A stretch of DNA of 64,000 bases from Clostridia bacterium (lineage in GTDB: Bacteria > Bacillota > Clostridia > TANB77 > CAG-465), in contig JAZOWO010000131.1 of NCBI GenBank assembly GCA_045659265.1, positions 1,757 to 65,756 on the forward strand, written 5' to 3'. Position numbers and translations under genes: made by a program. The notes beneath the pieces were generated by a model. That model ran no database searches, was not told the origin of the DNA, and saw nothing but the letters and a program-made list of their open reading frames with translations. Positions 25,206-59,373 of the stretch are shown here, one piece after another. Position 1 is the first letter of the stretch. Each line of letters opens with the position of its first letter.

Positions 25206-25382
25206 TTGTTTTCTCCTTTGTATAATACAATGAGTATATCATATATGTTAATAAAACAACAATAGCTTAAAGGTCTCTTTTAATATTAAAAATTAAAAGA
25301 AAATGTAATTTTATATAAGTTGAATTTAAATATATAATTGATATATAATTTGACTAATATAATCTGTTAGATGGGGGAAATA

Positions 25383-27041
25383 ATGAATACTGGTGTTATA
25401 AAGGTTGTTAAATGGTGCGTCATAGGCGTGATTGCTTTATATTTGTTGGGGAGTTTTATTGCAAATAAACCAAATAAAGATGCATGGATAATAGAAAATT
25501 TAGAAATGACATTAACATTTGTAAAAAATACTTTAACTATTGAAGAAAAAATTGACACTACAATCGGAAATGAAGTGTATTTTTCACATAATTTACAAGG
25601 AGAAGTAGGTAATTTAATTACAGGTATAGTGGAATATACTTATAAGGATAAAAAAATAAACGATAGATTAACTAGTGGCTGGTTTGTGACACCGGAAAAT
25701 ATTGCACAAGAGTTAGGAGCAAAAAAGGGAGATACTATAGGTATAAAGCTTTTATACAAGATAAATGTAGATATGTTATATAGAGGCGTTGATACAGATA
25801 TTTTAACATTAAAATTTATAGATGCTAAAAAATTTAAACTTAATTTAATACCTTATACAACTATAACAGATGTTAATGTTGAAGATGCATTAGTCACTGA
25901 AAATAATGGCGTTTATACTATTGATTTTGGAAAAATTAAAGCATCAAACCTGGATATAAAAGCTAAAATTCACGATGTTGATGCTGTAGTTGGTGAAACA
26001 ATAACAATATTAACGCCAGCTGGATATATAGTATGTTTTATGGGTACAACTTTGATCTGTTTAATAGCAGTGCTAATAAACAATAGAAAAAAGAAAAAAG
26101 TTAGTGAATATAGAAGAGAGACAAACAACTTAGTTTCACCATATCTAGCAGAACTGATTGTTGATGGAAAAATAGATATGAAAAATCTAATAATGACAAC
26201 GATAATTGATTTAGAATTAAAAGGGAAGGTTAAAATATTAAATAATGATGAGATAGAACTTATATCAACTGAAGGGCTAGATGCGGTACAAAAATGTATG
26301 ATATACTTGTTATTTATAGGAACGGGTGGAGAAAATAGAATAAAATTAAGTGATATAAATAATGCGTTCCGTAAATCTAAAATAACAACAAAAATCTTTT
26401 CTGAAAAATTGGCTATGGTTAAGAAGGCGTTAATAAACACATTAATTGCAACGCAATTTATTTCTAAAAAGAAAATGAAAATAGGAACGATTATAAAAAC
26501 AGTTGCGGCTATAAATTGCATATTAATATGTTTTCTATTCTCAGGCTTACCAATAACTATTGATGCGTTTCCGATAATGTTTGCTATTGCATTAGTATTT
26601 ATATTTATAGACAGTATTAATCATTATGAAGGTAATTTCAAGAGTGAAAGGGATGCAACTGGATGTTTAATGGTGATAGCGGGGATAGTTGCAATTTTTC
26701 AAGCGATAGGAATGATTAAATTAGATTTTATGATATATGGATTAGAGTTTTTATTAATAATGGCGGTATTGTTTATTGTAAATGTTATGGTTATAAGGGA
26801 GTCTAAACGTATATTGTTAACACCTGTTGGTGAGGCTGAAAGAATAGAGTTGCTGAAATTAAAGAAATATTTAACGGAACATAGTGTAATCAAAGAAAGA
26901 GATTTAGGTTCTGTTGTAATATGGGATGAATATTTAGCGTATGCAACAGCGTTTGGAATGCCAAATAGTATAATAAAACAAATTTATGAAGAGTGGTACA
27001 ATATTAATATGACATTACAATTTGTATCGCAAATACTATAA
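25383..27041 (+). CDS. Large multi-pass membrane protein (DUF2207-like architecture)
   Basis: It has an N-terminal TM segment, an extracytoplasmic domain of about 200 aa, then a cluster of TM helices. ATG at 25383 follows the RBS ggggga. Confidence 0.45.
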   Translation: MNTGVIKVVKWCVIGVIALYLLGSFIANKPNKDAWIIENLEMTLTFVKNTLTIEEKIDTTIGNEVYFSHNLQGEVGNLITGIVEYTYKDKKINDRLTSGWFVTPENIAQELGAKKGDTIGIKLLYKINVDMLYRGVDTDILTLKFIDAKKFKLNLIPYTTITDVNVEDALVTENNGVYTIDFGKIKASNLDIKAKIHDVDAVVGETITILTPAGYIVCFMGTTLICLIAVLINNRKKKKVSEYRRETNNLVSPYLAELIVDGKIDMKNLIMTTIIDLELKGKVKILNNDEIELISTEGLDAVQKCMIYLLFIGTGGENRIKLSDINNAFRKSKITTKIFSEKLAMVKKALINTLIATQFISKKKMKIGTIIKTVAAINCILICFLFSGLPITIDAFPIMFAIALVFIFIDSINHYEGNFKSERDATGCLMVIAGIVAIFQAIGMIKLDFMIYGLEFLLIMAVLFIVNVMVIRESKRILLTPVGEAERIELLKLKKYLTEHSVIKERDLGSVVIWDEYLAYATAFGMPNSIIKQIYEEWYNINMTLQFVSQIL

Positions 27042-27468: not shown

Positions 27469-30400
27469 ATGTTGGAGGTAAAGATGAATACAATATTAAA
27501 AAAGACAATAGCAACAATATTATTAATAGCAATGTTAATAACACATACACCAGTATATGTTATTGCTGCAGCAGACACAACTCCGCCATCAGTGGTGGTT
27601 TCTGGGCTGTCTTCAAGCACAGTAGCGTATAAAGGGGAAACAATGAGTTTTAAGGTGTATTTCTCAGATGAAACGGAAATGGGAGAAGTAACACTTACTA
27701 AAAACCATGTTATGCTAATAGGATTTACGGGAGATATATCTGTAAGTGGAAGCGGAAATACTAGAACAGTTACAATATCTAATATAAACGATAATTCTAC
27801 AACAGCTAACAAGGTGACAATAAGAGCAAATGCAGCAAAAGATGCAGCTGGTAATACTTCAAAAGTATTTACATCTTCTGCGTTTACTATAACTGAAAGA
27901 CCAGATACAACAAAACCATCAGTGGTAGTATCTAAACCTTCAGTTTCAACAGTAACAGAAGGGGGCTCTTTAACATATACAGTATCATTCTCAGATAATA
28001 AAGGAATAACAACTAATAATTTTAGTGCAAGTTATGTTTCTTTAACTGGATTTGATGCAACAGTGTCAGTAAGCGGAAGTGGAAATACAAGAACAGTAAC
28101 TCTTTCAAATATAACAGGAGCAGCAGACTCAGACAATAAAATATCAATAAGAGCAAATGCGGTAAAAGATGCAGCTGGTAATGGATCAAGTGTTGTAACA
28201 TCAACAGCGTTTACAATAAAAGCTAAAGATACAACAAGACCATCAGTAGTAATATCAAAACCATCTCCAACGACAGTTGAACAAGGCGGAACGGTTAAAT
28301 ATACAGTATCATTCTCAGATGAAACAGCGATTGGAACTGTAAACTTTAATGCAGATTATGTAGCGTTAGTAGGATTTACAGGAAATGTATCAGTATCAGG
28401 AACTGGAAATACTAGATATGTAACAATATCTAATGTTACTGGAACTGCGGATTCAGATAACAAAATAACAATAAGAGCAAACGCAGCAAAAGATTCAGTT
28501 GGAAATGGTACAGTGGCAACAAATTCTACTACATTTACAATTGTAGAACCTGTTAAAGATACAACAAGACCATCAGTAGTAATATCAAAACCATCTCCAA
28601 TGTCAGTAACAGAAGGTGGAACAGTTAAATATACAGTATCATTCTCAGATGAGACTGCAATGGGAACAATAAACTTTAACAAAGACTATGTAGCATTAAT
28701 AGGATTTACTGCTAATGTATCAGTGTCTGGAACAGGCAACACAAGAACAGTAACACTTACAAATGTTCAAGGTGCAGCAGATGCAGATAATAAAATAACA
28801 ATAAGAGCAAATGCAGCAAAAGATGCTGCTGGAAATGGTACAGTAGCAACAAACTCTACTACATTTACAATTGTAGAGCAAGTAAAAGATACAACAAGAC
28901 CATCAGTAGTAATATCAAAACCATCTCCACTATCAGTAGAAGTTGGTGGAACAGTAGAATATAAAGTAGTATTCTCAGATGAGACAGCAATGGGAACAAT
29001 AAACTTTAACAAAGATTATGTGGCATTAATAGGATTTACTGCTAATGTATCAGTATCAGGAACAGGAAACGCAAGAACAGTAACACTTACAAATATTCAA
29101 GGTGTAGCAGATGCAGATAATAAAATATCTGTAAGAGCAGGAGCAGCAAAGGATGCAGCTGGAAATGCAACAGTAGCAACTACATCAACAGCATTTACAA
29201 TTGTAGAACCTATTAAAGATACAACAAAACCATCAGTAGTAATATCAAAACCATCTCCACTATCTGTGGAAGTTGGTGGAACAGTAAGTTACACAGTAAT
29301 GTTCTCAGATGAAACAGCAATGGGTAAAGTTCATTTTAATGAAAACTATGTAGCACTAATAGGATTTGATGCAACAGTTTCTGTAACAGGAACAGGAAAT
29401 ACAAGAGTTGTTACATTATCTAATATTACAGGTGATGCAGATTCTAATAATAGAATAGCAGTAAGAGCAGGAGCGGCAGAAGATGCAGCTGGAAATAAAA
29501 CAGCAGTAGTTGAGTCTACTAACTTTACAGTTGTTATACCAACTCCTAAAGATACAACAGCACCTTCAGTGCTAGTATCTAATCCAAATCCAAAAACAGT
29601 AGAAGTTGGCGGAACAGTAAAATACACAGTAGTATTCTCAGATGAAACAGCAATGGGAACAATTCACTTTAATAAAAACTATGTAGCATTAATTGGATTT
29701 GATGCAGACATAACAGTGAGTGGAACAGGAAATACAAGAACAGTGACATTAACAAATGTTCAAGGTGGATTAGATTCAGATAATAGAATAGCAATAAGAG
29801 CAGGAGCAGCAGAAGATGCAGCTGGAAATAAAACTAAAGTGGTAGAATCACCTAACTTTACAGTTATAGCTCCACCAGTTAAGGATACAACAGCTCCATC
29901 AATAGCTATATCTGCACCAAAGCCAGGAACAATTGAATTAGGTGAAACAGTAAAATACACAGTAGTATTCTCAGACGAGACTGCTATGGGTAAAGTTCAT
30001 TTTGATAAGAGCTATGTTACATTAATAGGCTTTACAGCAAATATAATAGTAACAGGTGAAGGAAATACAAGAACAGTAACACTTACAAATGTTCAAGGTG
30101 GTATAGATAAAGATAATAGAATAGCAATTAAAGCGGGAGCAGCAGAAGATGCAGCTGGAAACAAAACTAAAGCAGTAGAATCAGCTAACTTTGAAATAAT
30201 CAAAACTGAAGAAAAAGATTCTATAGCTCCAGTAGTTAATATAACTTCTGTAAATCCAACAGCAATATATGCAAACGGAACAGTAAAATATACTGTAACA
30301 TTTGCAGATAATATTAAAGTAACAGAAGTAAATTTATATACAAGTAAAATTGAAACAGTGGGATTTGATGCAGATATATCTGTTAAAATGAACGGATTAA

Positions 30401-31779
30401 AATCAGCAGAAATCACATTAAAAAATATAAAAGGAACAGTTGGAAGCAATAAATATATTGTTATAGCATCTGGTGTAGCGCTAGACGCTGAAGGAAATAG
30501 ATCTAAAGAAGCAACAGGACCAAAATTCAGTATAATAGAAAAGACTAATCCAAAACCAGAAGTACCAACACAACCAGGTGATGAAGAAGATGCTTTAAGA
30601 CCAGTTGTAATTGAAAAAGCAAATTGTATAGATGACCTAGAATTAATAGGTGATGTAAACAAAGAAATAGATTACTTTGCTTCTTGGTTAAAAGCAGAGA
30701 AAAATGAAGATTTATACTTCCCACAAGAACAAAACTATGTTGTTAAAGGAAACGAAATGACATATATTGTTGAATACTTTAACGGAAGTACAGCAGCCGC
30801 AACAGGAGTTAAATTTGAGTTAACAATACCTTATGGTGTAAGAGTGCTTGAAATAAACGGTGGCGGTAAGGTAGAAAGCGTAACGGATAAAGCGACAGTA
30901 GTAACATGGAATCTTGGTGATGTAAAAGCATATGCAGCAACAAGCGGAACAGGATATTGTAGATTATATGTAAAAGTAAGATTCGTAGAAAATGTTGAAC
31001 TTGAAGCAAGTAAGAAAGTATCTGAAGAATTTTACGCAACATTAAAAACAACAGCTAATGATACAGTTTCATACTCATATATGAGACAATTATTTATCGA
31101 CTTAACAGAAGGTAAAGTTGGTACATACAATAAGACATTAGTAGCTATTGATGCATTAAATGAAGTTAGACCAAACGAAGAAATAACAAGAGCAGAATTT
31201 GCTAAGTTATTGGCAGATGCTGGAATTATTAAAGTAGACTATAAGAGCAAGGCATACAAAAACTTCAAAGATTACGAAACAATACCAGTATATGCAAGAG
31301 CAGCTGTAGCAGCACTTGCAAAAGCTGAAATAATTAAACCATATGCAGATGGAACATTCAAACCAAATAATCCTATGTTAATGGAAGATGTAATGCAAAT
31401 ACTAGCAGAAGCGGCAGCACATATGACAGAACAAAAATTAGCAGTTTCTAAACCAGTATTCTTATATACAGAAGCTTTAACAGGAAAAGATGGAGAAGTA
31501 TCTCCTAAGAAGGATTATATAATGGAACTAATGAGACAAAACGTTGTTTCAAGTGAAGAATCAAATCCAGATTCTTATGCATTAAGAAGAGAAGCAGTTG
31601 CAATGGTAAACAGCTTAGCATTTAGAGGACCAGTTATAGAAACACTTCCAGAAAACAAATTAAGAATAGCTAACGTAAGAGAAGATGGAGTAGTATTCTA
31701 TAATGTAGTAGATGCAATGGAAAAAACAACTTATGTTCATGACTACAGATTGTGGCAAGAATTGGTTGATGCAAAATAG
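27469..31779 (+). CDS. SLH-domain cell-surface protein with nine tandem Ig-like repeats of about 111 aa
   Basis: It has a signal peptide and 9 repeats of DTTxPSVVISKPSP…FSDETAMG…GTGNTRTVTLTN…IRANAAKDAAGN. The C-terminus carries SLH-type motifs (ITRAEFAKLLADAG…, …KPYADGTFKPNNPMLMEDV…). Confidence 0.8.
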   Translation: MLEVKMNTILKKTIATILLIAMLITHTPVYVIAAADTTPPSVVVSGLSSSTVAYKGETMSFKVYFSDETEMGEVTLTKNHVMLIGFTGDISVSGSGNTRTVTISNINDNSTTANKVTIRANAAKDAAGNTSKVFTSSAFTITERPDTTKPSVVVSKPSVSTVTEGGSLTYTVSFSDNKGITTNNFSASYVSLTGFDATVSVSGSGNTRTVTLSNITGAADSDNKISIRANAVKDAAGNGSSVVTSTAFTIKAKDTTRPSVVISKPSPTTVEQGGTVKYTVSFSDETAIGTVNFNADYVALVGFTGNVSVSGTGNTRYVTISNVTGTADSDNKITIRANAAKDSVGNGTVATNSTTFTIVEPVKDTTRPSVVISKPSPMSVTEGGTVKYTVSFSDETAMGTINFNKDYVALIGFTANVSVSGTGNTRTVTLTNVQGAADADNKITIRANAAKDAAGNGTVATNSTTFTIVEQVKDTTRPSVVISKPSPLSVEVGGTVEYKVVFSDETAMGTINFNKDYVALIGFTANVSVSGTGNARTVTLTNIQGVADADNKISVRAGAAKDAAGNATVATTSTAFTIVEPIKDTTKPSVVISKPSPLSVEVGGTVSYTVMFSDETAMGKVHFNENYVALIGFDATVSVTGTGNTRVVTLSNITGDADSNNRIAVRAGAAEDAAGNKTAVVESTNFTVVIPTPKDTTAPSVLVSNPNPKTVEVGGTVKYTVVFSDETAMGTIHFNKNYVALIGFDADITVSGTGNTRTVTLTNVQGGLDSDNRIAIRAGAAEDAAGNKTKVVESPNFTVIAPPVKDTTAPSIAISAPKPGTIELGETVKYTVVFSDETAMGKVHFDKSYVTLIGFTANIIVTGEGNTRTVTLTNVQGGIDKDNRIAIKAGAAEDAAGNKTKAVESANFEIIKTEEKDSIAPVVNITSVNPTAIYANGTVKYTVTFADNIKVTEVNLYTSKIETVGFDADISVKMNGLKSAEITLKNIKGTVGSNKYIVIASGVALDAEGNRSKEATGPKFSIIEKTNPKPEVPTQPGDEEDALRPVVIEKANCIDDLELIGDVNKEIDYFASWLKAEKNEDLYFPQEQNYVVKGNEMTYIVEYFNGSTAAATGVKFELTIPYGVRVLEINGGGKVESVTDKATVVTWNLGDVKAYAATSGTGYCRLYVKVRFVENVELEASKKVSEEFYATLKTTANDTVSYSYMRQLFIDLTEGKVGTYNKTLVAIDALNEVRPNEEITRAEFAKLLADAGIIKVDYKSKAYKNFKDYETIPVYARAAVAALAKAEIIKPYADGTFKPNNPMLMEDVMQILAEAAAHMTEQKLAVSKPVFLYTEALTGKDGEVSPKKDYIMELMRQNVVSSEESNPDSYALRREAVAMVNSLAFRGPVIETLPENKLRIANVREDGVVFYNVVDAMEKTTYVHDYRLWQELVDAK
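27574..30570 (+). repeat. Tandem direct repeats of about 333 bp, 9 copies, inside the surface-protein CDS
   Basis: Near-identical DNA blocks recur, for example agatacaacaagaccatcagtagtaatatcaaaaccatctcca at 28558, 28858 and 29218. Confidence 0.85.
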
Positions 31780-31791
31780 CAGAGTAGACAT

Positions 31792-31822
31792 AAAAAGTCA
31801 ACAGAAATGTTGACTTTTTATT
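31792..31822 (+). terminator. Rho-independent terminator after the surface-protein gene
   Basis: The hairpin aagtcaaca-gaaa-tgttgactt is followed by a T-run. Confidence 0.75.
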
Positions 31823-31945
31823 GTTTTTATGTTAAAATATTATTGTGTGAGATTGGTTAGCACCAAGTGATAATTTGCTTGGTTGGGCAGGCAAGTAATT
31901 ACTGGTTAATATATATAAAAAACATTAAAGGAGGATTTCGGATTT

Positions 31946-32848
31946 ATGAAATTCAAGAAAGACTTGGCCCTTTCACTCGCGACATTTGAAGGACTTATGC
32001 TTGCACTTCTTGTCGCAATGCCCATTTGGTTACTCGCAGTAGTAATCACACTTACTGTTGTTGGTGCAGCACTTACGGTTGTTACCATCATCAGCATGCG
32101 GAAGGATTCCGTTGATGAAACCACGGGTAAGCCCACTTACAGGTTCCCCATCTGGACCTTTGTAATTGGTGCAGTTCTCTTAGCCGCACTTACGGTTGGC
32201 ATCATGCTTGCATGCAAGAGACTGTTTGGCTTTGCTCTTATTCCGCTTGCTGTTGTGCTGTTGGCACTCTGCGTAATTGCTTGGATTAAGCACTGGAAAG
32301 TAGCGTTTGTATCGGTAGCAATCGTGCTCGCTCTTCTTGCTGTATTCCTTATCAGTTACGGTACCGCTTATATGGCGCACCACGACATCAGTTTGAACCC
32401 TGGTTTGGTAGCATCTGAACCTGCTGGCGACGAATCTCAGCTTCCCAACGACGAGACTGAAAAGCCTGGCGATGAGACCGAAAAACCTGGTGAAACTGAA
32501 AAGCCCGGAGATGAAAAACCTGGCGATGAAACCGAAAAGCCCGGTGATGAGACCCCTGGTAACACCACCACTCCTCCCGCTCCGACGGTAAAGATTAATG
32601 CCCCTGACACATTGTCTTACGGCAAACCTATTACTGTTAAGCTCGAAGGATGCAAGGTTGATGACCTTGTATTTGGCAATGAAGATTTTATTGCCATTTC
32701 CAAAATCTCGGATACCGAGGTAAGCATTATCCTTGTAGGAATCGTGAACGAGACCACTGGCCAAGTGGAAATCGTACCTGCATCTGGATATGTGACTATT
32801 ACCGATAGCGTATCCGGCACCAATGTATCTATCAACATCGTTGAGTGA
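31946..32848 (+). CDS. Paralogue 1 of a triplicated membrane-protein family: 4-5 TM, an ETEKPGD repeat linker and a C-terminal beta domain. GC-rich.
   Basis: Its N-terminal hydrophobic helices are followed by (D/E)ETEKPGD repeats and a conserved domain (KINAP…LEGCK.DDL.FGNEDF…VGIVN…GYVTITDSVSG…IVE). The RBS is aaaggagga. Confidence 0.6.
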   Translation: MKFKKDLALSLATFEGLMLALLVAMPIWLLAVVITLTVVGAALTVVTIISMRKDSVDETTGKPTYRFPIWTFVIGAVLLAALTVGIMLACKRLFGFALIPLAVVLLALCVIAWIKHWKVAFVSVAIVLALLAVFLISYGTAYMAHHDISLNPGLVASEPAGDESQLPNDETEKPGDETEKPGETEKPGDEKPGDETEKPGDETPGNTTTPPAPTVKINAPDTLSYGKPITVKLEGCKVDDLVFGNEDFIAISKISDTEVSIILVGIVNETTGQVEIVPASGYVTITDSVSGTNVSINIVE

Positions 32849-32857
32849 TACACAACC

Positions 32858-32895
32858 CAACCCGTAAACAGAAATGTTTACGGGTTGTTTCTTGC
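32858..32895 (+). terminator. Rho-independent terminator after paralogue 1
   Basis: The hairpin aacccgtaaaca-gaaa-tgtttacgggtt is followed by a T-run. Confidence 0.75.
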
Positions 32896-33026
32896 TTAAT
32901 CTGAATTTGATTTTTATGTATACTTATGGTATAATTATAGTATTAACTTCTTTTTACGAGAGCGTTTGTAATAAATGCTCCATTATATATATAAAAAAAT
33001 TTTTTTATTTAAGGAGGATTTCTAGA

Positions 33027-34529
33027 ATGAAATCTACAAAAGACGTGGCATTTGCCCTTAGCACCCTCGCAGCAATCTTTGTTGCACTGTTCGCAGCATT
33101 CGTATCCATCCCTGTATGGTTCGAAGCAGTAGTAATCACCCTTGCAGTAGTTGGCTTGGCCCTCACTATCTCTGAAGTAGTTAAAGCTTATAAAGCTTCC
33201 TATGATGAGACAACTGGTAAGCACACCTATAAATTCCCGGTACGGGTATTTGTATTTGGTGCACTTATCCTTTTAGCACTTGCAGCAATTGTTCTTCTTT
33301 CTCTTAAGAGATTGTATGGCTTTGCACTTATCCCTGTAGCAGTACTTCTTGCAATCCTTTTGGTAATTGCTTACCTTAAGAAACTTGGCAAGATGTTCTG
33401 GATTACACTTGTAGCACTGATTTTACTTGTAGTAGCACTTATTGGTTATGGCACTTCTATGATGGTTAAAAACGACATCAACCTCAACCCTGGCATCTCT
33501 GTAGAAACAACCACTCCCGATACTGAAAATGTTGATCCTGAAATTAACGACAAGGAAGATGGTGAAGTTGAAGAGAAACCTGTTGAAGATATCGTAAAGC
33601 CTGAAACTCCTGAGACTGAGGTTCCTGAAACTGAAACTCCTGAGACTGAGGTTCCCGAAACTGAAACTCCTGAGACTGAGGTTCCCGAAACTGAAACTCC
33701 TGAGACTGAGGTTCCCGAAACTGAAACTCCTGAGACTGAAGTTCCTGAAACTGAAACTCCTGAGACTGAGGTTCCCGAAACTGAAACTCCTGAGACTGAA
33801 GTTCCTGAAACTGAAACTCCCGAGACTGAAACCAAACCCGTTGTTCCTACTGTTGTAAAAATCAATGCTCCGAAGACTATGTCTTTTGGTGAATGCTTCA
33901 CAATTACTCTTGAAGGTTGCAAAGCAGATGACATCAAGTTCAGCAATGAAGACTATCTCTCCATCGTTATCGTTAATGATAATGAGATTGATGTAACTCT
34001 TCTTGGTTATGTTACTGATGCTGGAGAAATCGAATTCGCACCTGCTAGTGGTTACATCACTGTTACAGATTCTGTAAGTGGTGAAAGTGTAACTATTGAC
34101 ATCGTAGCTCTTCCTGAAATCGAAGATGTACCTGAAATCGAAGACGAACCTGTTGAAGAAGTTCCCGAAGAGAAACCTGTTGAAGATATTGTAAAGCCTG
34201 AGACTCCTGTAGAGGATCCTGAGGAAACTGTACCTGAAACAGAAGAGCCTGAAGTTGTAGAACCTGTAGTCGTAAGAATCAATGCACCTGAGGTTATGTA
34301 TTATGCAGAACCTATTGTAATTACCCTTGAGGGTATCAATGCAAATGATCTTAAGTTTGGGAATGAAGATTTCTTAGCTATCGCTATCCTTTCTGATACT
34401 GAAGTTGAGATTACTCTCGTAGGCATTGTTAATGATGCTGGCGATGTAGAATTCGTCCCCGCTGCTGGTTACATCACTATTACAGACTCTGTAAGTGGCG
34501 TGCATGTAGTAATTGAAATTGTTGAGTAA
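33027..34529 (+). CDS. Paralogue 2, carrying a PETEV repeat tract and two copies of the C-terminal domain
   Basis: ATG at 33027 follows aaggagga. The N-terminus is 80-90% identical to paralogue 3. It contains 8 copies of ETPETEVPET. The conserved domain occurs twice (…VVKINAPKTM… and …VVRINAPEVM…). Confidence 0.65.
   Translation: MKSTKDVAFALSTLAAIFVALFAAFVSIPVWFEAVVITLAVVGLALTISEVVKAYKASYDETTGKHTYKFPVRVFVFGALILLALAAIVLLSLKRLYGFALIPVAVLLAILLVIAYLKKLGKMFWITLVALILLVVALIGYGTSMMVKNDINLNPGISVETTTPDTENVDPEINDKEDGEVEEKPVEDIVKPETPETEVPETETPETEVPETETPETEVPETETPETEVPETETPETEVPETETPETEVPETETPETEVPETETPETETKPVVPTVVKINAPKTMSFGECFTITLEGCKADDIKFSNEDYLSIVIVNDNEIDVTLLGYVTDAGEIEFAPASGYITVTDSVSGESVTIDIVALPEIEDVPEIEDEPVEEVPEEKPVEDIVKPETPVEDPEETVPETEEPEVVEPVVVRINAPEVMYYAEPIVITLEGINANDLKFGNEDFLAIAILSDTEVEITLVGIVNDAGDVEFVPAAGYITITDSVSGVHVVIEIVE
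33596..33835 (+). repeat. Tandem repeat of about 30 bp, about 8 copies, encoding (ETPETEVPET)n
   Basis: The unit gaaactcctgagactgaggttcc(c/t)gaaact repeats almost perfectly. Confidence 0.85.
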
Positions 34530-34544
34530 TCAACAAGCTAACGT

Positions 34545-34578
34545 CAGACACCTCCGGAATTTCCGGAGGTGTTTTCTT
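34545..34578 (+). terminator. Rho-independent terminator after paralogue 2
   Basis: The hairpin acacctccgg-aattt-ccggaggtgt is followed by ttttctt. Confidence 0.75.
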
Positions 34579-34717
34579 GTGTTGGAAAAGGCTGCTAATT
34601 TGACTTTTATGTCTACTTGTGCTATAATATAATTACTAATTTCCTTTTTAAGAGAGCTGTAATAAGCTCCATTATATATATATAAAAAAATTTTTTTATT
34701 AAAGGAGGATTTCTAAA

Positions 34718-35722
34718 ATGAAATCTACAAAAGACGTTGTACTCGCACTCGCAACCCTCGGCGGAGCTCTCGTAGCTCTCTTTGCACTCTTCTTTGCTAT
34801 GCCTGCATGGCTTGAAGCAGTTGTAATCACCCTCACGGTAGTTGGCTTGGCCCTCACCATCTCTGAAATCGTGAATGCTTATAAAGCATCCTACGATGAA
34901 GGTACTGGCAAACATACTTACAAGTTCCCTGTTCGGGTATTTGTTTTTGGTTCGCTTGTACTTGTAGCACTTGCAGCAATTGTTCTTCTTTCTCTTAAGA
35001 GATTGTTTGGCTTTGCTCTTATTCCCGTAGCAGCACTTCTTGCAATCCTTCTTGTGATTGCTATTCTCAAGAAATTGGGAAAGATGTTCTGGATTACACT
35101 TGTAGCACTTGTACTCTTGGTTGTAGCACTCATTAGTTACGGCGCAGCTGTAATGGTTAAGAATGACATCAACCTCAACCCTGGTATCTCTGTAGAGACC
35201 ACCGCTCCTGAAACTGAAACTCCCGAAACGGAAGTTCCTGAGACGGAAGCACCTGAGACTGAAGTCCCTGAAACCGAAACTCCTGAAACTGAGGTTCCTG
35301 AAACCGAAGTTCCTGAGACCACTGTTCCTGAAACTGAAGCACCTGAAACCGAAGCACCCGAAACGGATGCTCCTGTAGTAGACGCTCCTGTTATTAAGGA
35401 TGAAACTCCTAAGGAGGAAACTCCCAAGGATGAGCCCACCAATGAAGGTTTTGTACCCGTTGTTGTAAAGATCAATGCCCCTGAGACTATGCGTTATGCA
35501 GAACCCATCATCCTCACTCTTGAGGGTGTTAAGGCAGAAAATCTTAGATTTGGCAATGAGGATTTCTTAGCTATCGCTATCCTTTCTGATACCGAAGTTG
35601 AGATCACACTCGTAGGCATCGTTAATGATGCAGGCGATGTTGAATTCGTCCCCGCTGCTGGATACATCACTGTAACAGATTCTGAAACTGGTGCAAATGT
35701 AACTATTGAAATTGTTGAGTAA
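34718..35722 (+). CDS. Paralogue 3 of the membrane-protein family
   Basis: It has the same architecture: MKSTKDV…, 4-5 TM segments, a degenerate PETE(V/A) linker and the conserved C-terminal domain. Its 5' UTR is near-identical to that of paralogue 2. Confidence 0.65.
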   Translation: MKSTKDVVLALATLGGALVALFALFFAMPAWLEAVVITLTVVGLALTISEIVNAYKASYDEGTGKHTYKFPVRVFVFGSLVLVALAAIVLLSLKRLFGFALIPVAALLAILLVIAILKKLGKMFWITLVALVLLVVALISYGAAVMVKNDINLNPGISVETTAPETETPETEVPETEAPETEVPETETPETEVPETEVPETTVPETEAPETEAPETDAPVVDAPVIKDETPKEETPKDEPTNEGFVPVVVKINAPETMRYAEPIILTLEGVKAENLRFGNEDFLAIAILSDTEVEITLVGIVNDAGDVEFVPAAGYITVTDSETGANVTIEIVE

Positions 35723-35740
35723 TCAACAAGCACAAACGTC

Positions 35741-35775
35741 AGACACCTCCGGTATTACCGGAGGTGTTTTCTTGT
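35741..35775 (+). terminator. Rho-independent terminator after paralogue 3
   Basis: The hairpin acacctccgg-tatta-ccggaggtgt is followed by a T-run and is almost identical to the terminator at 34545. Confidence 0.75.
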
Positions 35776-35864
35776 GCTTTTTTGACATTATTTTTAATAT
35801 GTCTGATTTTATTTCGACAAAATTTGACAGTATAAATTGCTATACTATTAACGAGGTGGTTTTA

Positions 35865-36170
35865 GTGACATATACATATGATAATAGTAAAAATAAACTT
35901 AGTATTATATTAGATGAGGAAATAGATGTTAATTCATGCAAAACTTTAAGAACAATAATAGATGGATATATTATGAGGTATAGCCCAAAAATTTGTGAGT
36001 TGGATTTAGAAAAGGTGTCTTTTATGGACAGCTCGGGTATAGGTTTTGTGGTAGGTAGAAAGAATTTAGCAGATATGTTAAATTGTAGATTTAATGTAGT
36101 AAATGCAAATCCTAATATTAAGAAATTGATGCAGCTTTATGATAAAGCTAAAAGAGGTGTGGGATGTTAA
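35865..36170 (+). CDS. spoIIAA: Anti-sigma-F factor antagonist (STAS domain)
   Basis: VSFMDSSGIGFVVGR matches the SpoIIAA phosphorylation-site region. A GTG start follows the RBS gaggtgg. Confidence 0.8.
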   Translation: MTYTYDNSKNKLSIILDEEIDVNSCKTLRTIIDGYIMRYSPKICELDLEKVSFMDSSGIGFVVGRKNLADMLNCRFNVVNANPNIKKLMQLYDKAKRGVGC

Positions 36171-36607
36171 ATGAAATATATATTAAGATAAAATCTTGTT
36201 TAGATAATATATCTTTAGTAAGAGTTGTTGCTGCATCTTTTTTAAGCAGGACGAATATAACCTTGGATGAATTACAAGATATAAAAACAGCTGTATCAGA
36301 AGCGGTTACAAATTGTATAGAACATGGATACGAAAATGATGAAAGCAAATATATAGATGTAGAAATGAAACTAGCAGAAGTAGATCAGATGGTATACTAT
36401 TGGGTTAAGATTGTAGATAGTGGTATAGGCATAGAAGATGTTGAACTTGCAACTACTCCCACATACACAAATAAACCGGAATTAGAGCATGCTGGTATGG
36501 GCTTTACAATAATGGAAACATTTATGGATGAAGTTCAAATAGATTCTACAGTAGGTGAAGGAACTGCTGTAACGATGACTAAAAAATTAAAAACTATAAA
36601 GGCGTAG
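36164..36607 (+). CDS. spoIIAB: Anti-sigma-F factor (serine kinase, HATPase_c)
   Basis: The product is closely similar to SpoIIAB (…TAVSEAVTNCIEHGY…NKPELEHAGMGFTIMETFMDEV…) and overlaps spoIIAA by 7 nt. Confidence 0.85.
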   Translation: MLNEIYIKIKSCLDNISLVRVVAASFLSRTNITLDELQDIKTAVSEAVTNCIEHGYENDESKYIDVEMKLAEVDQMVYYWVKIVDSGIGIEDVELATTPTYTNKPELEHAGMGFTIMETFMDEVQIDSTVGEGTAVTMTKKLKTIKA

Positions 36608-36617
36608 GAGAAATAAA

Positions 36618-36863
36618 ATGGAATGTGTTTATGAAAGATATATTAAAGATTTTAGATGTAAATATTATATTCTAAAAGCAACTAAAGGATATGTAGGAAT
36701 AAAGATAGAAAAATTAAATCCAAATGGTGAAATATTAGACGAATGTGTTGTGGAAAATGTGGATTGTGATGAAGGAAAAGTAAGAGAATTGTTAAAACAA
36801 ATAAACAAAGGCAAAGTTACTCCTATTACATTAAAGGATGTAATTGCAGACAGCGTTATATAA
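36618..36863 (+). CDS. Small hypothetical protein (81 aa, four Cys) in the position normally occupied by sigF
   Basis: The ORF has an RBS ggag upstream and carries no sigma-70 regions. Cysteines lie at residues 3, 14, 43 and 50. Confidence 0.4.
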   Translation: MECVYERYIKDFRCKYYILKATKGYVGIKIEKLNPNGEILDECVVENVDCDEGKVRELLKQINKGKVTPITLKDVIADSVI

Positions 36864-56408: not shown

Positions 56409-57914
56409 TTAACCGTTAACCGCTTTAGCAAAAAGCTTAAGCAGAGAGGTTATAGCGAGTCTGTTGTAAGGAGCAAGCTCTTGTTTGGATGCTGTCCAAC
56501 TTCTGAAGGCTTCCTTAAGGCCATCTTTTACGACATCTTCTGTAAGTTCAGAGTTTGTCTTCATAACTTCAGCGATGATGTTTTCGTAAGTGATTCGCTT
56601 AATAGAAGTAGAAGCAAGGAATGCTTCGTTAATAAGCGGATTATCTGTAGGCATACCGATTGCTTCAAGGAAGGTACGAGTATTACCTAAAATAGAACCG
56701 CCTACTTCAATTTGCTTTAGCGCATCTCCAACAACCACAAGAATAACATCTTCTGCTGTTTGTCCTTTGGGAAGGGTAGATGAAACAACTTCAGAAGGAG
56801 TAGTTGTGGGATTGCTGGTTTCTGCTACCAATGAGGGTTCTTCAGTAAGAATGGGTTCGCTTGCTTCGGGCTCATCTTCAAAAATCATTTCGGGATCGGT
56901 GTCTTCAATATCTTCAAAGAGATGTTCGAAGTTTGCGCTGTAGTCTCTTGCTTTTGGAAGCAGTGTAACCAAATCGTACAAGAAATTAGGCTTTGCTTTT
57001 CCTACCACTGTCTGAAGTCTTTCTGCGCGCAGGTAGCGACCTTTATCCAGAAGAGCGGTGCCGCCGTAGTATTGCTCGTAGTAGTAATCTACATCGACAT
57101 CTCTGTGGAAGGTAATGTATACCTTTGCATCAATATCTTCGGTAGCTTTAGTGATAGGAACAATGTATACCATTTTGTCTGCGGTGATATCAAGGACGAT
57201 GCCAAGAACATGGCTGCCGTTGATTTCGCGCGGAAGATGAGTGCCGAAGTAACAGTCTACAACATCACCAACAGAGAATTCGATGATATTGGGGTCGGTG
57301 TACTTAAGACTCATCTCGCGAATCGCTGTCCAAATGTGGTTTACGATTTCTTTTTCGTTTCCGCATTGCTTATACATTGCCCAATAAGCTGTTCTAAGAA
57401 GCTTGTTCATAGCAGCTTCGATTGCAGGGTTCTGGAATTCGATTTTCTTAACGATAAGATCGTCTTCGCTCTGAGGACCGACTACCTTTTGCTCGGGCGG
57501 GAATACTTCTATAGAAACAACTTCGCGTTCACCGCTTTCTTCGCCTTGGAGTTCTTCGGTAGGAACTTCGCATCCTTCAGGGTGCTCTTCGGAAAATTCT
57601 GTGACAGAAACTACCTCGCGGTTGTCGCTAGGCTCCGTAGTTCCTTCAGGCGGAAATTCCACAATAGAAAGAACAGTATCTTCTTCGGGGAATTCTTCAT
57701 CTACAAGGTTGTCTACTTCTACACCCAAGAGTACATAGTACTCATTGATGAGATCAATAACAGGATCAATGAGATCGTCATGGACGTTCTCAACGGTGAC
57801 ATAACCGTTTTCTACATCAAGATAAAGCTTGCACTTTATCTTAGTAACCGCTTTAAGGAGCGGAGATATGTTTCCATCTTTGGGGCCGTTTACTTTAAAT
57901 GTGAGTCTATTCAT
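56409..57914 (-). CDS. Multidomain protein, paralogue B: a divergent MazF/PemK-like domain and a Spo0A-C-like C-terminus. GC-rich island.
   Basis: The middle region …VGDVVDCYFGTHLPREINGSHVLGIVLDITADKMVYIVPITKAT… fits the PemK/MazF pattern GD…G.E…RP.vV…P.T. The C-terminus …LEAIGMPTDNPLINEAFLA… parallels Spo0A_C. Its N-terminus is paralogous to the next gene. Confidence 0.5.
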   Translation of the reverse strand: MNRLTFKVNGPKDGNISPLLKAVTKIKCKLYLDVENGYVTVENVHDDLIDPVIDLINEYYVLLGVEVDNLVDEEFPEEDTVLSIVEFPPEGTTEPSDNREVVSVTEFSEEHPEGCEVPTEELQGEESGEREVVSIEVFPPEQKVVGPQSEDDLIVKKIEFQNPAIEAAMNKLLRTAYWAMYKQCGNEKEIVNHIWTAIREMSLKYTDPNIIEFSVGDVVDCYFGTHLPREINGSHVLGIVLDITADKMVYIVPITKATEDIDAKVYITFHRDVDVDYYYEQYYGGTALLDKGRYLRAERLQTVVGKAKPNFLYDLVTLLPKARDYSANFEHLFEDIEDTDPEMIFEDEPEASEPILTEEPSLVAETSNPTTTPSEVVSSTLPKGQTAEDVILVVVGDALKQIEVGGSILGNTRTFLEAIGMPTDNPLINEAFLASTSIKRITYENIIAEVMKTNSELTEDVVKDGLKEAFRSWTASKQELAPYNRLAITSLLKLFAKAVNG

Positions 57915-59373
57915 TAACTAATTCTCCTTTGGTCTTTATTAAGTTGTTGATTAAGCGAATAAAATCGCTAGTGGGAGCTTTTTTCATCTTAAAGTTTTCC
58001 TTAACTCTTGCAACAATAAGCCTTTGGATTTCAGAAGGAACTGTTTCAGGATGAATCTTGTTTACAAGATTTGAAAGAGTTTCCAAATTGTAATACTGAC
58101 ATCTAAGACTTGCAAAAATTGCATCGTTTAAGAATTCTACACCACGTCTTGTAGCATCAAATCCGAAAATCTCAAGCAGAATCTTCACCTTATCCTTATC
58201 TGACATAGTATCACTTGCGATGTTATATATATCTTGCATATTTGCAAACTTTAACAGCTCGCGTTGAACTTCATTCAGTTCTTCGATGCTCTGTCTTACA
58301 GGTACAGGTTTGGGTGGTTCTGTCTTAATTTTAGAAATTTGCTTTTCTCTAGGATCGTAATCCTGATCTTTCCTAAAAGTACTCTTTTTCTTCTTTTTAG
58401 GAGTGGGTGCAGGGGTCGCGATTTTAACCTTAGGTGCTGTAACTTGTTTTGTAGATTGAGTAGTCGGACTTTTAGCTGGTACATTAACAGGTTGCTTGCT
58501 TGTAATGGCAGGTCTCGTTTCCTTAACAGGTGTAACGATTTTGACTTCATCTTCTTTTTCCTCTGTTGTGAGACTTAAAGAAGTACAGATGAAGCTTGAA
58601 AGCTCATCCATAAAAGAATCTGTCATTGTACCTAAATACTGCATAAAGCGGGTTTTGTCTACTGTCTGAATTTGTTCTGCAAGAGCAGTACTATATCCAG
58701 AAGAAAGACCATTGATAGCTTTAGGATAATCCACCATATTTTCTTCCGTAAATTTGAAAGTATAATGGGTGGGAAGATACTTAGGCTTATACCTTGTAGT
58801 AAAAGGAATTACAATTGTGGTAGGAGAGTATTTATTTCCTTTATCGTTTTGGATGACAATAACAGGTCTAACACCTCCTTGCTCGGAACCGATTGCATCA
58901 CCTAAATCGCAACGATATATTTGACCTCGTTTTACAAGTCTAGGTTTATGCGGCTTTTCTGACATAGTAATTTCTTCAACTACGGGTTCTGCAGATTGTT
59001 CTTCAATTTCAGGTTCGATACAGATGGTTTCTGAAGTTGCTTCTTGAACAGGGACTTTTTCTTCATCCTTTTTAGCTTGAATAGAAGTATCTGAAGCATG
59101 AATGTTGTGGTGTGCTTTTGCAATAAACATTGGTGTGGGATTTGTTTTGTTATACGAGTAATTAATAAAGTTTGTTTTACTAGTATAATTCTGTACACCA
59201 ACAACAGTTACCATACTAGCAAGTGAGTCTAAAAGTTCGTCGGGTAATGTGCCATCGAGGTAAATGGTATCGTTATCAATCTTTGCTTTAATTTTGTATT
59301 TTACCAGCAATTTCGTGACTTCGCATACATTTACATCTTTAGAAAGTAATAGTAACAAAATCTGTTCCTCCAT
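57907..59373 (-). CDS. Multidomain protein, paralogue A: an N-terminal domain, a complete EndoA/MazF-type mRNA-interferase domain, a K/P/T-rich linker and a Spo0A C-terminal-like DNA-binding domain
   Basis: Residues about 143-270, [61 protein letters not shown]…[13 protein letters not shown]…, are near-colinear with B. subtilis EndoA ([47 protein letters not shown]…KLPTHVEI…LLEQIRTIDKQRL). The C-terminus …[19 protein letters not shown]…[16 protein letters not shown] resembles Spo0A_C (…GVPAHIKGYLYLREAI…KAKPTNSEFIAMVADKL). It overlaps paralogue B by 8 nt. Confidence 0.6.
   Translation of the reverse strand: [488 protein letters not shown]

Follow-up and report, generated by a model that had tools for sequence, protein, structure and literature searches.

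Genes and architecture at the locus

We analyzed a stretch of 64,000 nucleotides (nt), hereafter the window, of contig JAZOWO010000131.1 from the assembly GCA_045659265.1 of Clostridia bacterium (GTDB Clostridia; TANB77; CAG-465), and within it an array of three adjacent genes, g1, g2 and g3, coding for paralogous membrane proteins. The backbone of the window is chromosomal, with ~30% GC, and contains the genes for EF-Tu, PolC and CtpB and those of the RecA region. The array is bounded upstream by the gene of an SLH-domain surface protein with immunoglobulin-like (Ig-like) repeats (27469-31779) and downstream by a gene pair for a STAS protein and an anti-sigma kinase (35856-36607); PolC, a Na/Ca exchanger, RluD and CtpB make up the wider flanks. 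The three genes, with the lengths of their products in amino acids (aa), are:

31946-32848, + strand: g1, 300 aa; five-helix anchor (31946-32410), ETEKPGD-type stalk, Ig-like tip module (32585-32845)
33027-34529, + strand: g2, 500 aa; five-helix anchor, 120-aa stalk, module A (33852-34109), 53-aa second linker, module B (34269-34526)
34718-35722, + strand: g3, 334 aa; five-helix anchor (34718-35191), stalk (35205-35375), tip module (35462-35719)

The start of g2 is most likely at 33027, where a consensus ribosome-binding site (AAGGAGG) precedes the N-terminal residues MKSTKD, and not at an upstream ATG at 32874. Aligned end to end, the three proteins have one common architecture, as the original prediction, made from the nucleotide sequence alone, had held: a hydrophobic N-terminal domain that closes with a NLNPG motif at about residue 155, a low-complexity linker (ETEKPGD in g1, ETPETEVPET in g2 and g3), and a C-terminal module directly followed by the terminal residues I(E/N)IVE. 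That prediction was also right on the conservation of the module and on its doubling in the second copy, though not on its size, which is 86 aa and not ~95. Tblastn finds exactly four tip modules within the window: one each in g1 and g3, and two in g2, where modules A and B share 70% DNA identity.

Each gene is preceded and followed by its own expression signals

A promoter of the extended -10 type, a structured leader, a strong ribosome-binding site and a terminator accompany each of g1, g2 and g3 individually. These features are:

31790-31838, + strand: terminator of the SLH gene (31790-31821) and g1 promoter (31810-31838; TTGACT-17-TAAAAT with TG extension)
31862-31906, + strand: g1 leader hairpin, followed by the tract ATATATAAAAAA and the ribosome-binding site AAAGGAGGATTTC
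32858-32887, + strand: g1 terminator, 13-bp stem
32907-32935, + strand: g2 promoter, TTGATT-17-TATAAT with TG extension
32960-32980, + strand: g2 leader hairpin, followed by a TTATATATATA-A(n)-T(n) tract and the ribosome-binding site
34546-34574, + strand: g2 terminator, AGACACCTCCGG...CCGGAGGTGTTT
34600-34628, + strand: g3 promoter, TTGACT-17-TATAAT with TG extension; 11 of 12 consensus positions
34654-34669, + strand: g3 leader hairpin, GAGCU...AGCUC, followed by an AU tract and the ribosome-binding site
35741-35769, + strand: g3 terminator, with the same stem as that of g2

The terminators have 13-bp stems, and the loops of the g2 and g3 terminators differ. At g1 the promoter is interlocked with the upstream gene: the 3' arm of the SLH-gene terminator (TTGACT) is itself the -35 box, followed by a 17-nt spacer and the extended -10 box. 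The same overlap is present in the single-copy orthologues and in the loci L006-L011 described below, i.e. it has been kept across deeply diverged genomes. The order of the 5' elements is common to all 11 family genes examined, at every depth of divergence. The leader hairpin lies ~20 nt past the -10 box; downstream of it come UUUAUAUAUA, runs of A and then of U, and AAAGGAGG. The g1 hairpin is stable (dG -19.2, z -4.6 against shuffled sequences), with a counterpart in the g1 orthologues of L006 and L007. Hairpin stems vary across the family with their pairing kept (GAGC/GCUC, CAAGCU/AGCUUG, GGUCUU/AAGACC, CGGAG/CUCCG, CAGAC/GUCUG, ACCAAG/CUUGGU), and a direct reading of the single-sequence folds has four of the five basal pairs changed on both sides; RNAalifold predicted no pairs in a consensus fold of the leaders, from a MAFFT alignment that put the hairpins out of register. 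The combination of AU tract and ribosome-binding-site motif occurs at three sites in the window, only at g1, g2 and g3, where 0.16 would be expected by chance. A search of the leaders against Rfam recovered no family, the sole match being at chance level (E 0.32) and at a terminator. Stabiliser, translational enhancer and attenuator are all conceivable roles for the leader element. Neither an invertible promoter nor a phase-variation tract was seen in the promoters or the early coding sequence.

A five-helix anchor, a repeat stalk and an Ig-like tip

The AlphaFold model of the anchor has five transmembrane helices (residues 2-25, 30-57, 72-93, 101-117 and 121-148) that agree with the hydropathy peaks, a number at the upper end of the four to five originally proposed. 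Clusters of Lys and Arg are situated at the N-terminus, in the loop after helix 2 (53-73) and in the loop after helix 4 (118-122), and the C-terminal part contains 29-96 acidic as against 7-12 basic residues. A relative, P0057, has the same C-terminal module behind a classical signal peptide and a TGDD repeat, without a membrane anchor, and its signal peptide therefore places the tip module outside the cytoplasm. We accordingly predict an N-in, C-out topology from the charge distribution, the odd number of helices and this secreted relative; under it the cytoplasmic segments would be tiny (6, ~20 and 5 aa). Conserved motifs of the anchor include P29, W31, Y68-F70-P71, G98, P103 and NPG. The C-termini of all three proteins lack a LPXTG sortase motif, a hydrophobic stretch and a basic tail, and Pfam matched no SLH, CWB or LysM-type module in any of them, SLH domains being present only in the upstream gene.

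The stalk of g2 is encoded by a tandem repeat (33601-33829, + strand) of a 30-bp unit, present 7.6 times with 95% match, that specifies ETPETEVPET, and that of g3 (35205-35375) by a degenerate 15/30-bp PETE repeat. The linkers are ~58 aa in g1, ~92 aa in g3 and 120 aa in g2, where the second linker and module follow. In near-identical alleles from other samples the first linker measures 60, 70, 90, 100 or 120 aa with the remainder of the protein unchanged, so that stalk length differs by exact steps of 10 aa. The stalks of distant orthologues differ altogether from these: they are bactofilin-like beta-helix repeats (P0062, Pfam E 3.6e-8) or Cys-rich modules. The stalk is thus a swappable spacer between an anchor and a tip that are kept, since distant positional orthologues retain both on other stalk types. 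The Cys-rich stalks (P0055, P0058, P0066, P0068, P0070) contain repeated units of ~35 aa (e.g. APTCTEKGYTLYTCxxCGxSYK), which resemble a zinc ribbon in pattern and match no Pfam model.

The tip module is modeled with high confidence (AlphaFold predicted local distance difference test, pLDDT, 92) as an 86-aa Ig-like beta sandwich, with seven strands in two sheets that superpose on known Ig-like domains; this places it with the Ig-like/E-set sandwiches at the level of the fold only. Searches of the three proteins against Pfam, NCBIfam, PHROGs and PADLOC gave nothing significant, the PHROGs matches being confined to low-complexity segments, and hmmscan at E <= 1 recovered no Ig-like Pfam family (Big_2, TIG, fn3, Cohesin and others) for any of them. 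Sequence-profile searches of the PDB with tip and anchor were likewise negative, with only chance matches (E >= 0.05) for the tip. Thus, the suggestion that homologues of the C-terminal module be sought led to no characterized family. A tip profile run against 1.84 billion representative proteins returned 30 matches at E <= 0.001, and a word-indexed protein search ~33 true relatives, all from metagenomes or metagenome-assembled genomes (MAGs), its other matches being to the linker only. Hence, the fold is known and the sequence family is undescribed.

Positional orthologues and the age of the array

A locus scan covering one genome per GTDB species retrieved seven loci (L001-L007) in five MAGs labeled "Clostridia bacterium", which were sampled from sheep rectum and elsewhere. 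All seven are syntenic with the window in the order SLH protein, g1, g2, g3, STAS, anti-sigma kinase, DUF6514, RluD. Three independent MAG assemblies (L001, L002 and L006) span the full array in the same order, and in two further MAGs the contig breaks inside it (L003/L004 and L005/L007). More distant relatives of 330-430 aa (P0059, P0062, P0065-P0070), which are among the matches of the tip profile, combine a multi-helix N-terminus, homologous to the membrane domain of the window's proteins (hhalign probability 88%, E 3e-6), with the same C-terminal module. The four that could be placed on contigs (L008-L011) likewise occupy the site of the array and are immediately followed by STAS, anti-sigma kinase and DUF6514 genes. 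The preceding gene codes for a SLH protein in L008 and L011, the two contigs with full upstream context, and a truncated upstream open reading frame (ORF) in L009 has an end resembling the window's SLH protein; wherever a locus extends far enough to include the preceding gene, then, the family adjoins the SLH/Ig-repeat surface protein. RluD, RluB and CtpB of L008 and L011 match their counterparts in the window at only 66-74% identity. With the site the same and both anchor and tip homologous, the family forms a single group of positional orthologues, of which distant relatives have one copy and the window's clade three. It is restricted to a narrow uncultured clade.

Two neighbors deserve mention. 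The STAS, SpoIIAB-like anti-sigma kinase and DUF6514 genes (35856-36863) form a conserved trio with no sigma-factor gene after it, unlike the usual spoIIAA-spoIIAB-sigF operon. In the window, a gene for a DUF2207_C membrane protein (25371-27041) separates the Na/Ca exchanger from the SLH gene; it is absent from that site in L004, L007 and L011, which have a SASP gene or a short gap there.

Within the array, g2 and g3 are 82% identical in DNA from promoter to ATG, 80% in the membrane domain, 83% in the last module and 89% in the terminator region, as against 57-65% between g1 and either of them. One whole transcription unit (promoter, coding sequence and terminator) has been duplicated, because the similarity of g2 and g3 runs along its entire length. 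This is what had been suggested from the sequence; the accompanying description of the 5' regions and terminators as nearly identical holds for the terminator stems, which are the same, and is otherwise overstated. Nor is the duplication recent, as had been supposed: the array is present in at least five other MAGs, and g2 and g3 differ by ~20% at the DNA level. The membrane domains of g2 and g3 are 82% identical within the window and 72% within L006, whereas orthologues from different allele classes share 60-69%. This closer resemblance within a genome points to gene conversion or repeated duplication of g2/g3, with g1 as a separate, older lineage.

Purifying selection and exchange of allele classes

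The ratio of nonsynonymous to synonymous divergence (dN/dS) is 0.06-0.23 for the three genes, and they are hence functional and under purifying selection. The tip is the most constrained part, with a dN/dS of 0.02-0.16 compared to 0.10-0.31 for the anchor. Among g1 alleles the tip remains 93-100% identical even where dS is saturated, and the membrane domain ranges from 61 to 97%. When the window is compared with L001, L002 and L004, dS is 0.15-0.29 for the family and 0.3-0.9 for the flanks; in comparison with L005, L006 and L007, it is 1.2-2.9 for the family and 0.43-0.58 for the flanks. This discordance between family and flanks fits a pattern in which allele classes are exchanged by recombination between related genomes, and a weaker form of it is seen in the neighboring SLH gene. 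Taken together, locus evolution has involved tandem duplication of the whole unit, homogenization of g2 and g3, gain and loss of 30-bp repeats, and allele-class exchange.

The SLH protein (27469-31779) itself has 1436 aa with about ten Ig-like repeats, a GC content at third codon positions (GC3) of 0.13 and host-typical codon usage. It diverges faster than the flanks (83% identity to L006/L007, vs ~94% for RluD and CtpB), and in distant relatives it is only 879 aa long.

A codon usage retained at one site

The composition of the array is unlike that of its host, as first noted from the sequence: GC content is 41-47% vs ~30% in the backbone, and GC3 is 0.45, 0.29 and 0.34 for g1, g2 and g3, respectively, vs a mean of 0.186 (standard deviation 0.027) for 44 other ORFs (z +3.7 to +9.8). 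Third-position A drops from 0.48 to 0.23-0.25 in the family and third-position C rises from 0.07 to 0.20-0.22. ATA, CTA and CCA do not occur at all and TTA accounts for 6% of the Leu codons, while CTC, ACC, CCC, GGC and TCC are frequent. By comparison, CTC, ACC, CCC and TCC stand at 0-2% and GGC at 0-10% in EF-Tu, the SLH protein and 19 background genes. The same bias is found in every allele class, and the distant single-copy orthologues have a GC3 of 0.26-0.58 vs 0.10-0.29 for their flanks. A single transfer followed by slow amelioration cannot account for it, because it is kept in all alleles and in distant positional orthologues.

Four further explanations were rejected. Host translational selection fails, as EF-Tu prefers CCA, ACA, TTA, AAA and GAA, which the family avoids or uses much more rarely. 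GC-biased gene conversion fails, as neither NCG nor most G-ending codons are enriched, the shift being from A3 to C3 and T3. Avoidance of MazF-type cleavage motifs was considered because of a PemK-domain gene in a second island (see below); against synonymous-codon shuffles, no 3- to 5-mer is strongly depleted (the strongest being ATA, z -4.7). Finally, a real antisense gene is discounted, as each paralogue and orthologue interrupts the long antisense ORFs in its own way. These ORFs (- strand: 32180-32860, 33446-33946 and 35137-35475; in L006, 8475-9473) run codon-aligned to the family genes that they overlap. They are not conserved in length and so look like a by-product of the family's avoidance of TTA, CTA and TCA, the reverse complements of stop codons.

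A second compositional island (56409-59373, - strand) lies between an ABC-3 permease gene and tyrS. Its first ORF codes for a protein of 501 aa with acidic PE-rich segments, no family match and a GC3 of 0.39, and its codons mirror those of the family: CTC, ACC, CCC and GGC are used, and ATA, TTA, CTA and CCA avoided. The second codes for a protein of 488 aa, far longer than the PemK/MazF toxin domain (Pfam E 1e-23) at its center. Neither viral contigs nor JGI metagenomes yielded relatives of this island, nor is there a record of the exact protein.

Proposed function and its alternatives

We believe that these genes probably represent an undescribed, clade-restricted family whose products, polytopic in the membrane, carry a small Ig-like domain on a spacer and present it on the cell exterior, with the tip binding a conserved ligand. 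Each gene would be transcribed separately from a near-consensus, housekeeping-type promoter, and the structured leader and strong ribosome-binding site would lead to high, constitutive synthesis. The five-helix N-terminal domain would insert with N-in/C-out topology and serve chiefly as an anchor, and the acidic Pro/Glu/Thr linker may act as an extended spacer through the cell-wall zone. At ~0.3 nm per residue, the linkers would span ~17 nm in g1, 28 nm in g3 and 36 nm in g2, and the paralogues would therefore hold their tips at different heights. The Ig-like tip would be the conserved working part, and the candidates for its partner are a wall polymer, the neighboring SLH-anchored surface protein or a conserved external ligand. 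We slightly favor an endogenous envelope component, i.e. the SLH protein or a wall polymer, because the tip is so highly conserved. Membrane-tethered display, one of the functions originally entertained, is thus the best-supported reading.

Several considerations weigh against it. The confidence of the anchor model is moderate (pLDDT 70), and the topology draws on prediction and one relative with a signal peptide. Five helices with conserved motifs exceed what anchoring needs, so that the membrane domain may have a function of its own. The fold of the tip is generic and names no ligand, a Foldseek search of the PDB having returned nothing at E <= 0.001. The differences in stalk length are taken from short-read assemblies, in which a tandem repeat of 229 bp may collapse. 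The whole region of ~20 kb is syntenic, and adjacency to the SLH gene need not mean functional coupling. Lastly, a display function leaves the persistent codon anomaly unexplained after the four explanations tested.

A more specific version of the display reading is possible, though we would not call it likely: the proteins could be tethers or spacers between membrane and S-layer, with the tip docking on the SLH-anchored Ig-repeat protein or a wall polymer and the three stalk lengths setting the envelope spacing, comparable to Lpp or to the Pro-rich spacers of the TonB/TolA type in diderm bacteria. The adjacency to the SLH gene is invariant over deep divergence and extends to a terminator arm that doubles as -35 box, a very conserved tip is as expected for an endogenous partner, the beta-helix stalks of distant relatives are rigid, and strong promoters suit an abundant structural protein. 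However, adjacency is weak evidence in a region syntenic over 20 kb, and SLH proteins, which wall polymers normally retain, do not require a tether to the membrane.

Equally tentative is a reading that takes the codon usage as its starting point. Here the genes would occupy a fixed slot where a gene-specific codon usage, avoiding A-ending and rich in C- and T-ending codons, is actively maintained across genus-level divergence together with a covarying leader hairpin and AU tract. This would amount to a dedicated post-transcriptional regime for an abundant envelope protein, and the proteins would be polytopic "rulers" of graded length reaching from the membrane to the S-layer zone. Candidate causes of such maintenance are selection on mRNA stability or a codon- or tRNA-dependent gating of translation, the latter comparable in logic to the control exerted through bldA and TTA codons in Streptomyces.

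Rather unlikely, in our view, is a variable surface display under diversifying selection, whether as variation of a phage receptor or decoy or for immune evasion. The 10-aa length steps of the stalk repeat, the homogenization of g2 and g3 within a genome and the faster divergence of the SLH neighbor relative to the flanks would be in keeping with it. So would the family dS, above that of the flanks against L005-L007 and below it against L001, L002 and L004, which fits exchange of cassettes. Yet dN/dS stays far below 1 throughout, the exposed tip evolves more slowly than any other part (in g1, dN 0.04-0.05 at saturated dS), and, as noted above, no invertible promoter or phase-variation tract was seen in the promoters or the early coding sequence. 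The earlier suggestion of a variable surface in the antigenic sense is hence not supported, as the tip is the most conserved part and variation resides in stalk length and allele classes. The same applies to an immunity-like family: the PADLOC search yielded only a weak match on the low-complexity linker (E 2e-4), and no toxin or bacteriocin gene adjoins the array.

A recently acquired foreign island, its composition being the signature of a higher-GC donor, is very unlikely and largely refuted, even though GC content, the use of CTC, ACC, CCC, GGC and TCC, the absence of ATA, CTA and CCA, and the like usage of the second island (56409-59373) all invite it. The anomaly is kept by positional orthologues at the site between the SLH and STAS genes in genomes with RluD and CtpB only 66-74% identical, which removes the odd composition as a sign of recent insertion, and the bias is unchanged though dS between allele classes is saturated. 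Furthermore, the flanks are without integrase, transposase or phage genes, viral contigs yielded no relatives, and only 30 matches came from 1.84 billion representative proteins, with the loci examined all belonging to one clade.

It is also very doubtful that the proteins are extracellular sensors for the downstream partner-switching pair of STAS protein and anti-sigma kinase (35856-36607). The STAS, HATPase_c_2 and DUF6514 genes do directly follow a family gene in every locus examined, and the layout is loosely like that of RsgI-type anti-sigma factors, with their membrane span, Pro/Thr linker and sensor domain on the outside. A strong terminator nevertheless separates g3 from the STAS gene, and no phosphatase, kinase or anti-sigma domain was found in the three proteins: RsgI-type factors have one transmembrane helix and a cytoplasmic domain, whereas the family has five helices and predicted cytoplasmic segments of at most ~20 aa without domain matches. 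That the triplication is an assembly artefact, or that the ORFs are not real genes, is hardly credible: repeats are hard to assemble and the contig breaks inside the array in two MAGs, but L001, L002 and L006 independently span it in the same order, the paralogues differ by 20-45% at the DNA level, and their dN/dS is 0.06-0.23.

Relation to described surface proteins and implications

Multi-spanning integral membrane proteins with a surface-exposed domain constitute a class in a scheme of monoderm surface proteins (PMC5817068). The family resembles this class in that N-terminal helices would anchor an extracytoplasmic C-terminal domain in the absence of a LPXTG motif, lipobox or wall-binding module; the class is a category and not a homologous family, and no described member has a five-helix anchor, a Pro/Glu/Thr stalk and this tip. 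Bacterial Ig-like domains (the Big domains of invasin, intimin and FdeC, TIG/IPT and filamin-type domains) and cohesins share 9-19% sequence identity with the tip, without a Pfam match at E = 1. Cohesins are dockerin-binding jelly rolls of ~140 residues and nine strands, unlike the tip with its 86 residues and seven strands; the cohesin structure 2vo8 aligns with it over 67 residues at 13% identity. The Pro-rich spacers of LPXTG proteins and of TonB/TolA (Glu-Pro/Lys-Pro) are charged low-complexity segments between an anchor and a globular end domain, and like the stalks of the family have a length set by repeat number. The family differs from these in its anchor of five N-terminal helices and in having no sortase signal, TonB_C domain or nearby ExbB/ExbD-type partner. 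The YueB/Pip proteins, too, are polytopic membrane proteins with a long ectodomain through the Gram-positive wall; this ectodomain is a helical fibre, and the transmembrane helices are mainly C-terminal. They share with the family a polytopic anchor and an extended structure exposing a distal region, and are much larger, with no sequence or domain similarity to it.

In kind, then, the family is familiar: it falls among the Gram-positive surface proteins that combine an Ig-like domain with a Pro-rich spacer. Its anchor, sequence family and locus organization are undescribed. The surprising parts are the long-kept codon anomaly and the covarying leader. That the same slot keeps its anomaly across deep divergence either counsels caution with composition-based calls of transfer or points to a selective or mutational process acting on single genes. 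Membrane-tethered display as proposed here would add an anchor-stalk-tip design to the display modes of Gram-positive bacteria, for uncultured gut Clostridia whose surface proteins are poorly described, and the graded stalk lengths together with the conserved tip invite a search for its ligand.

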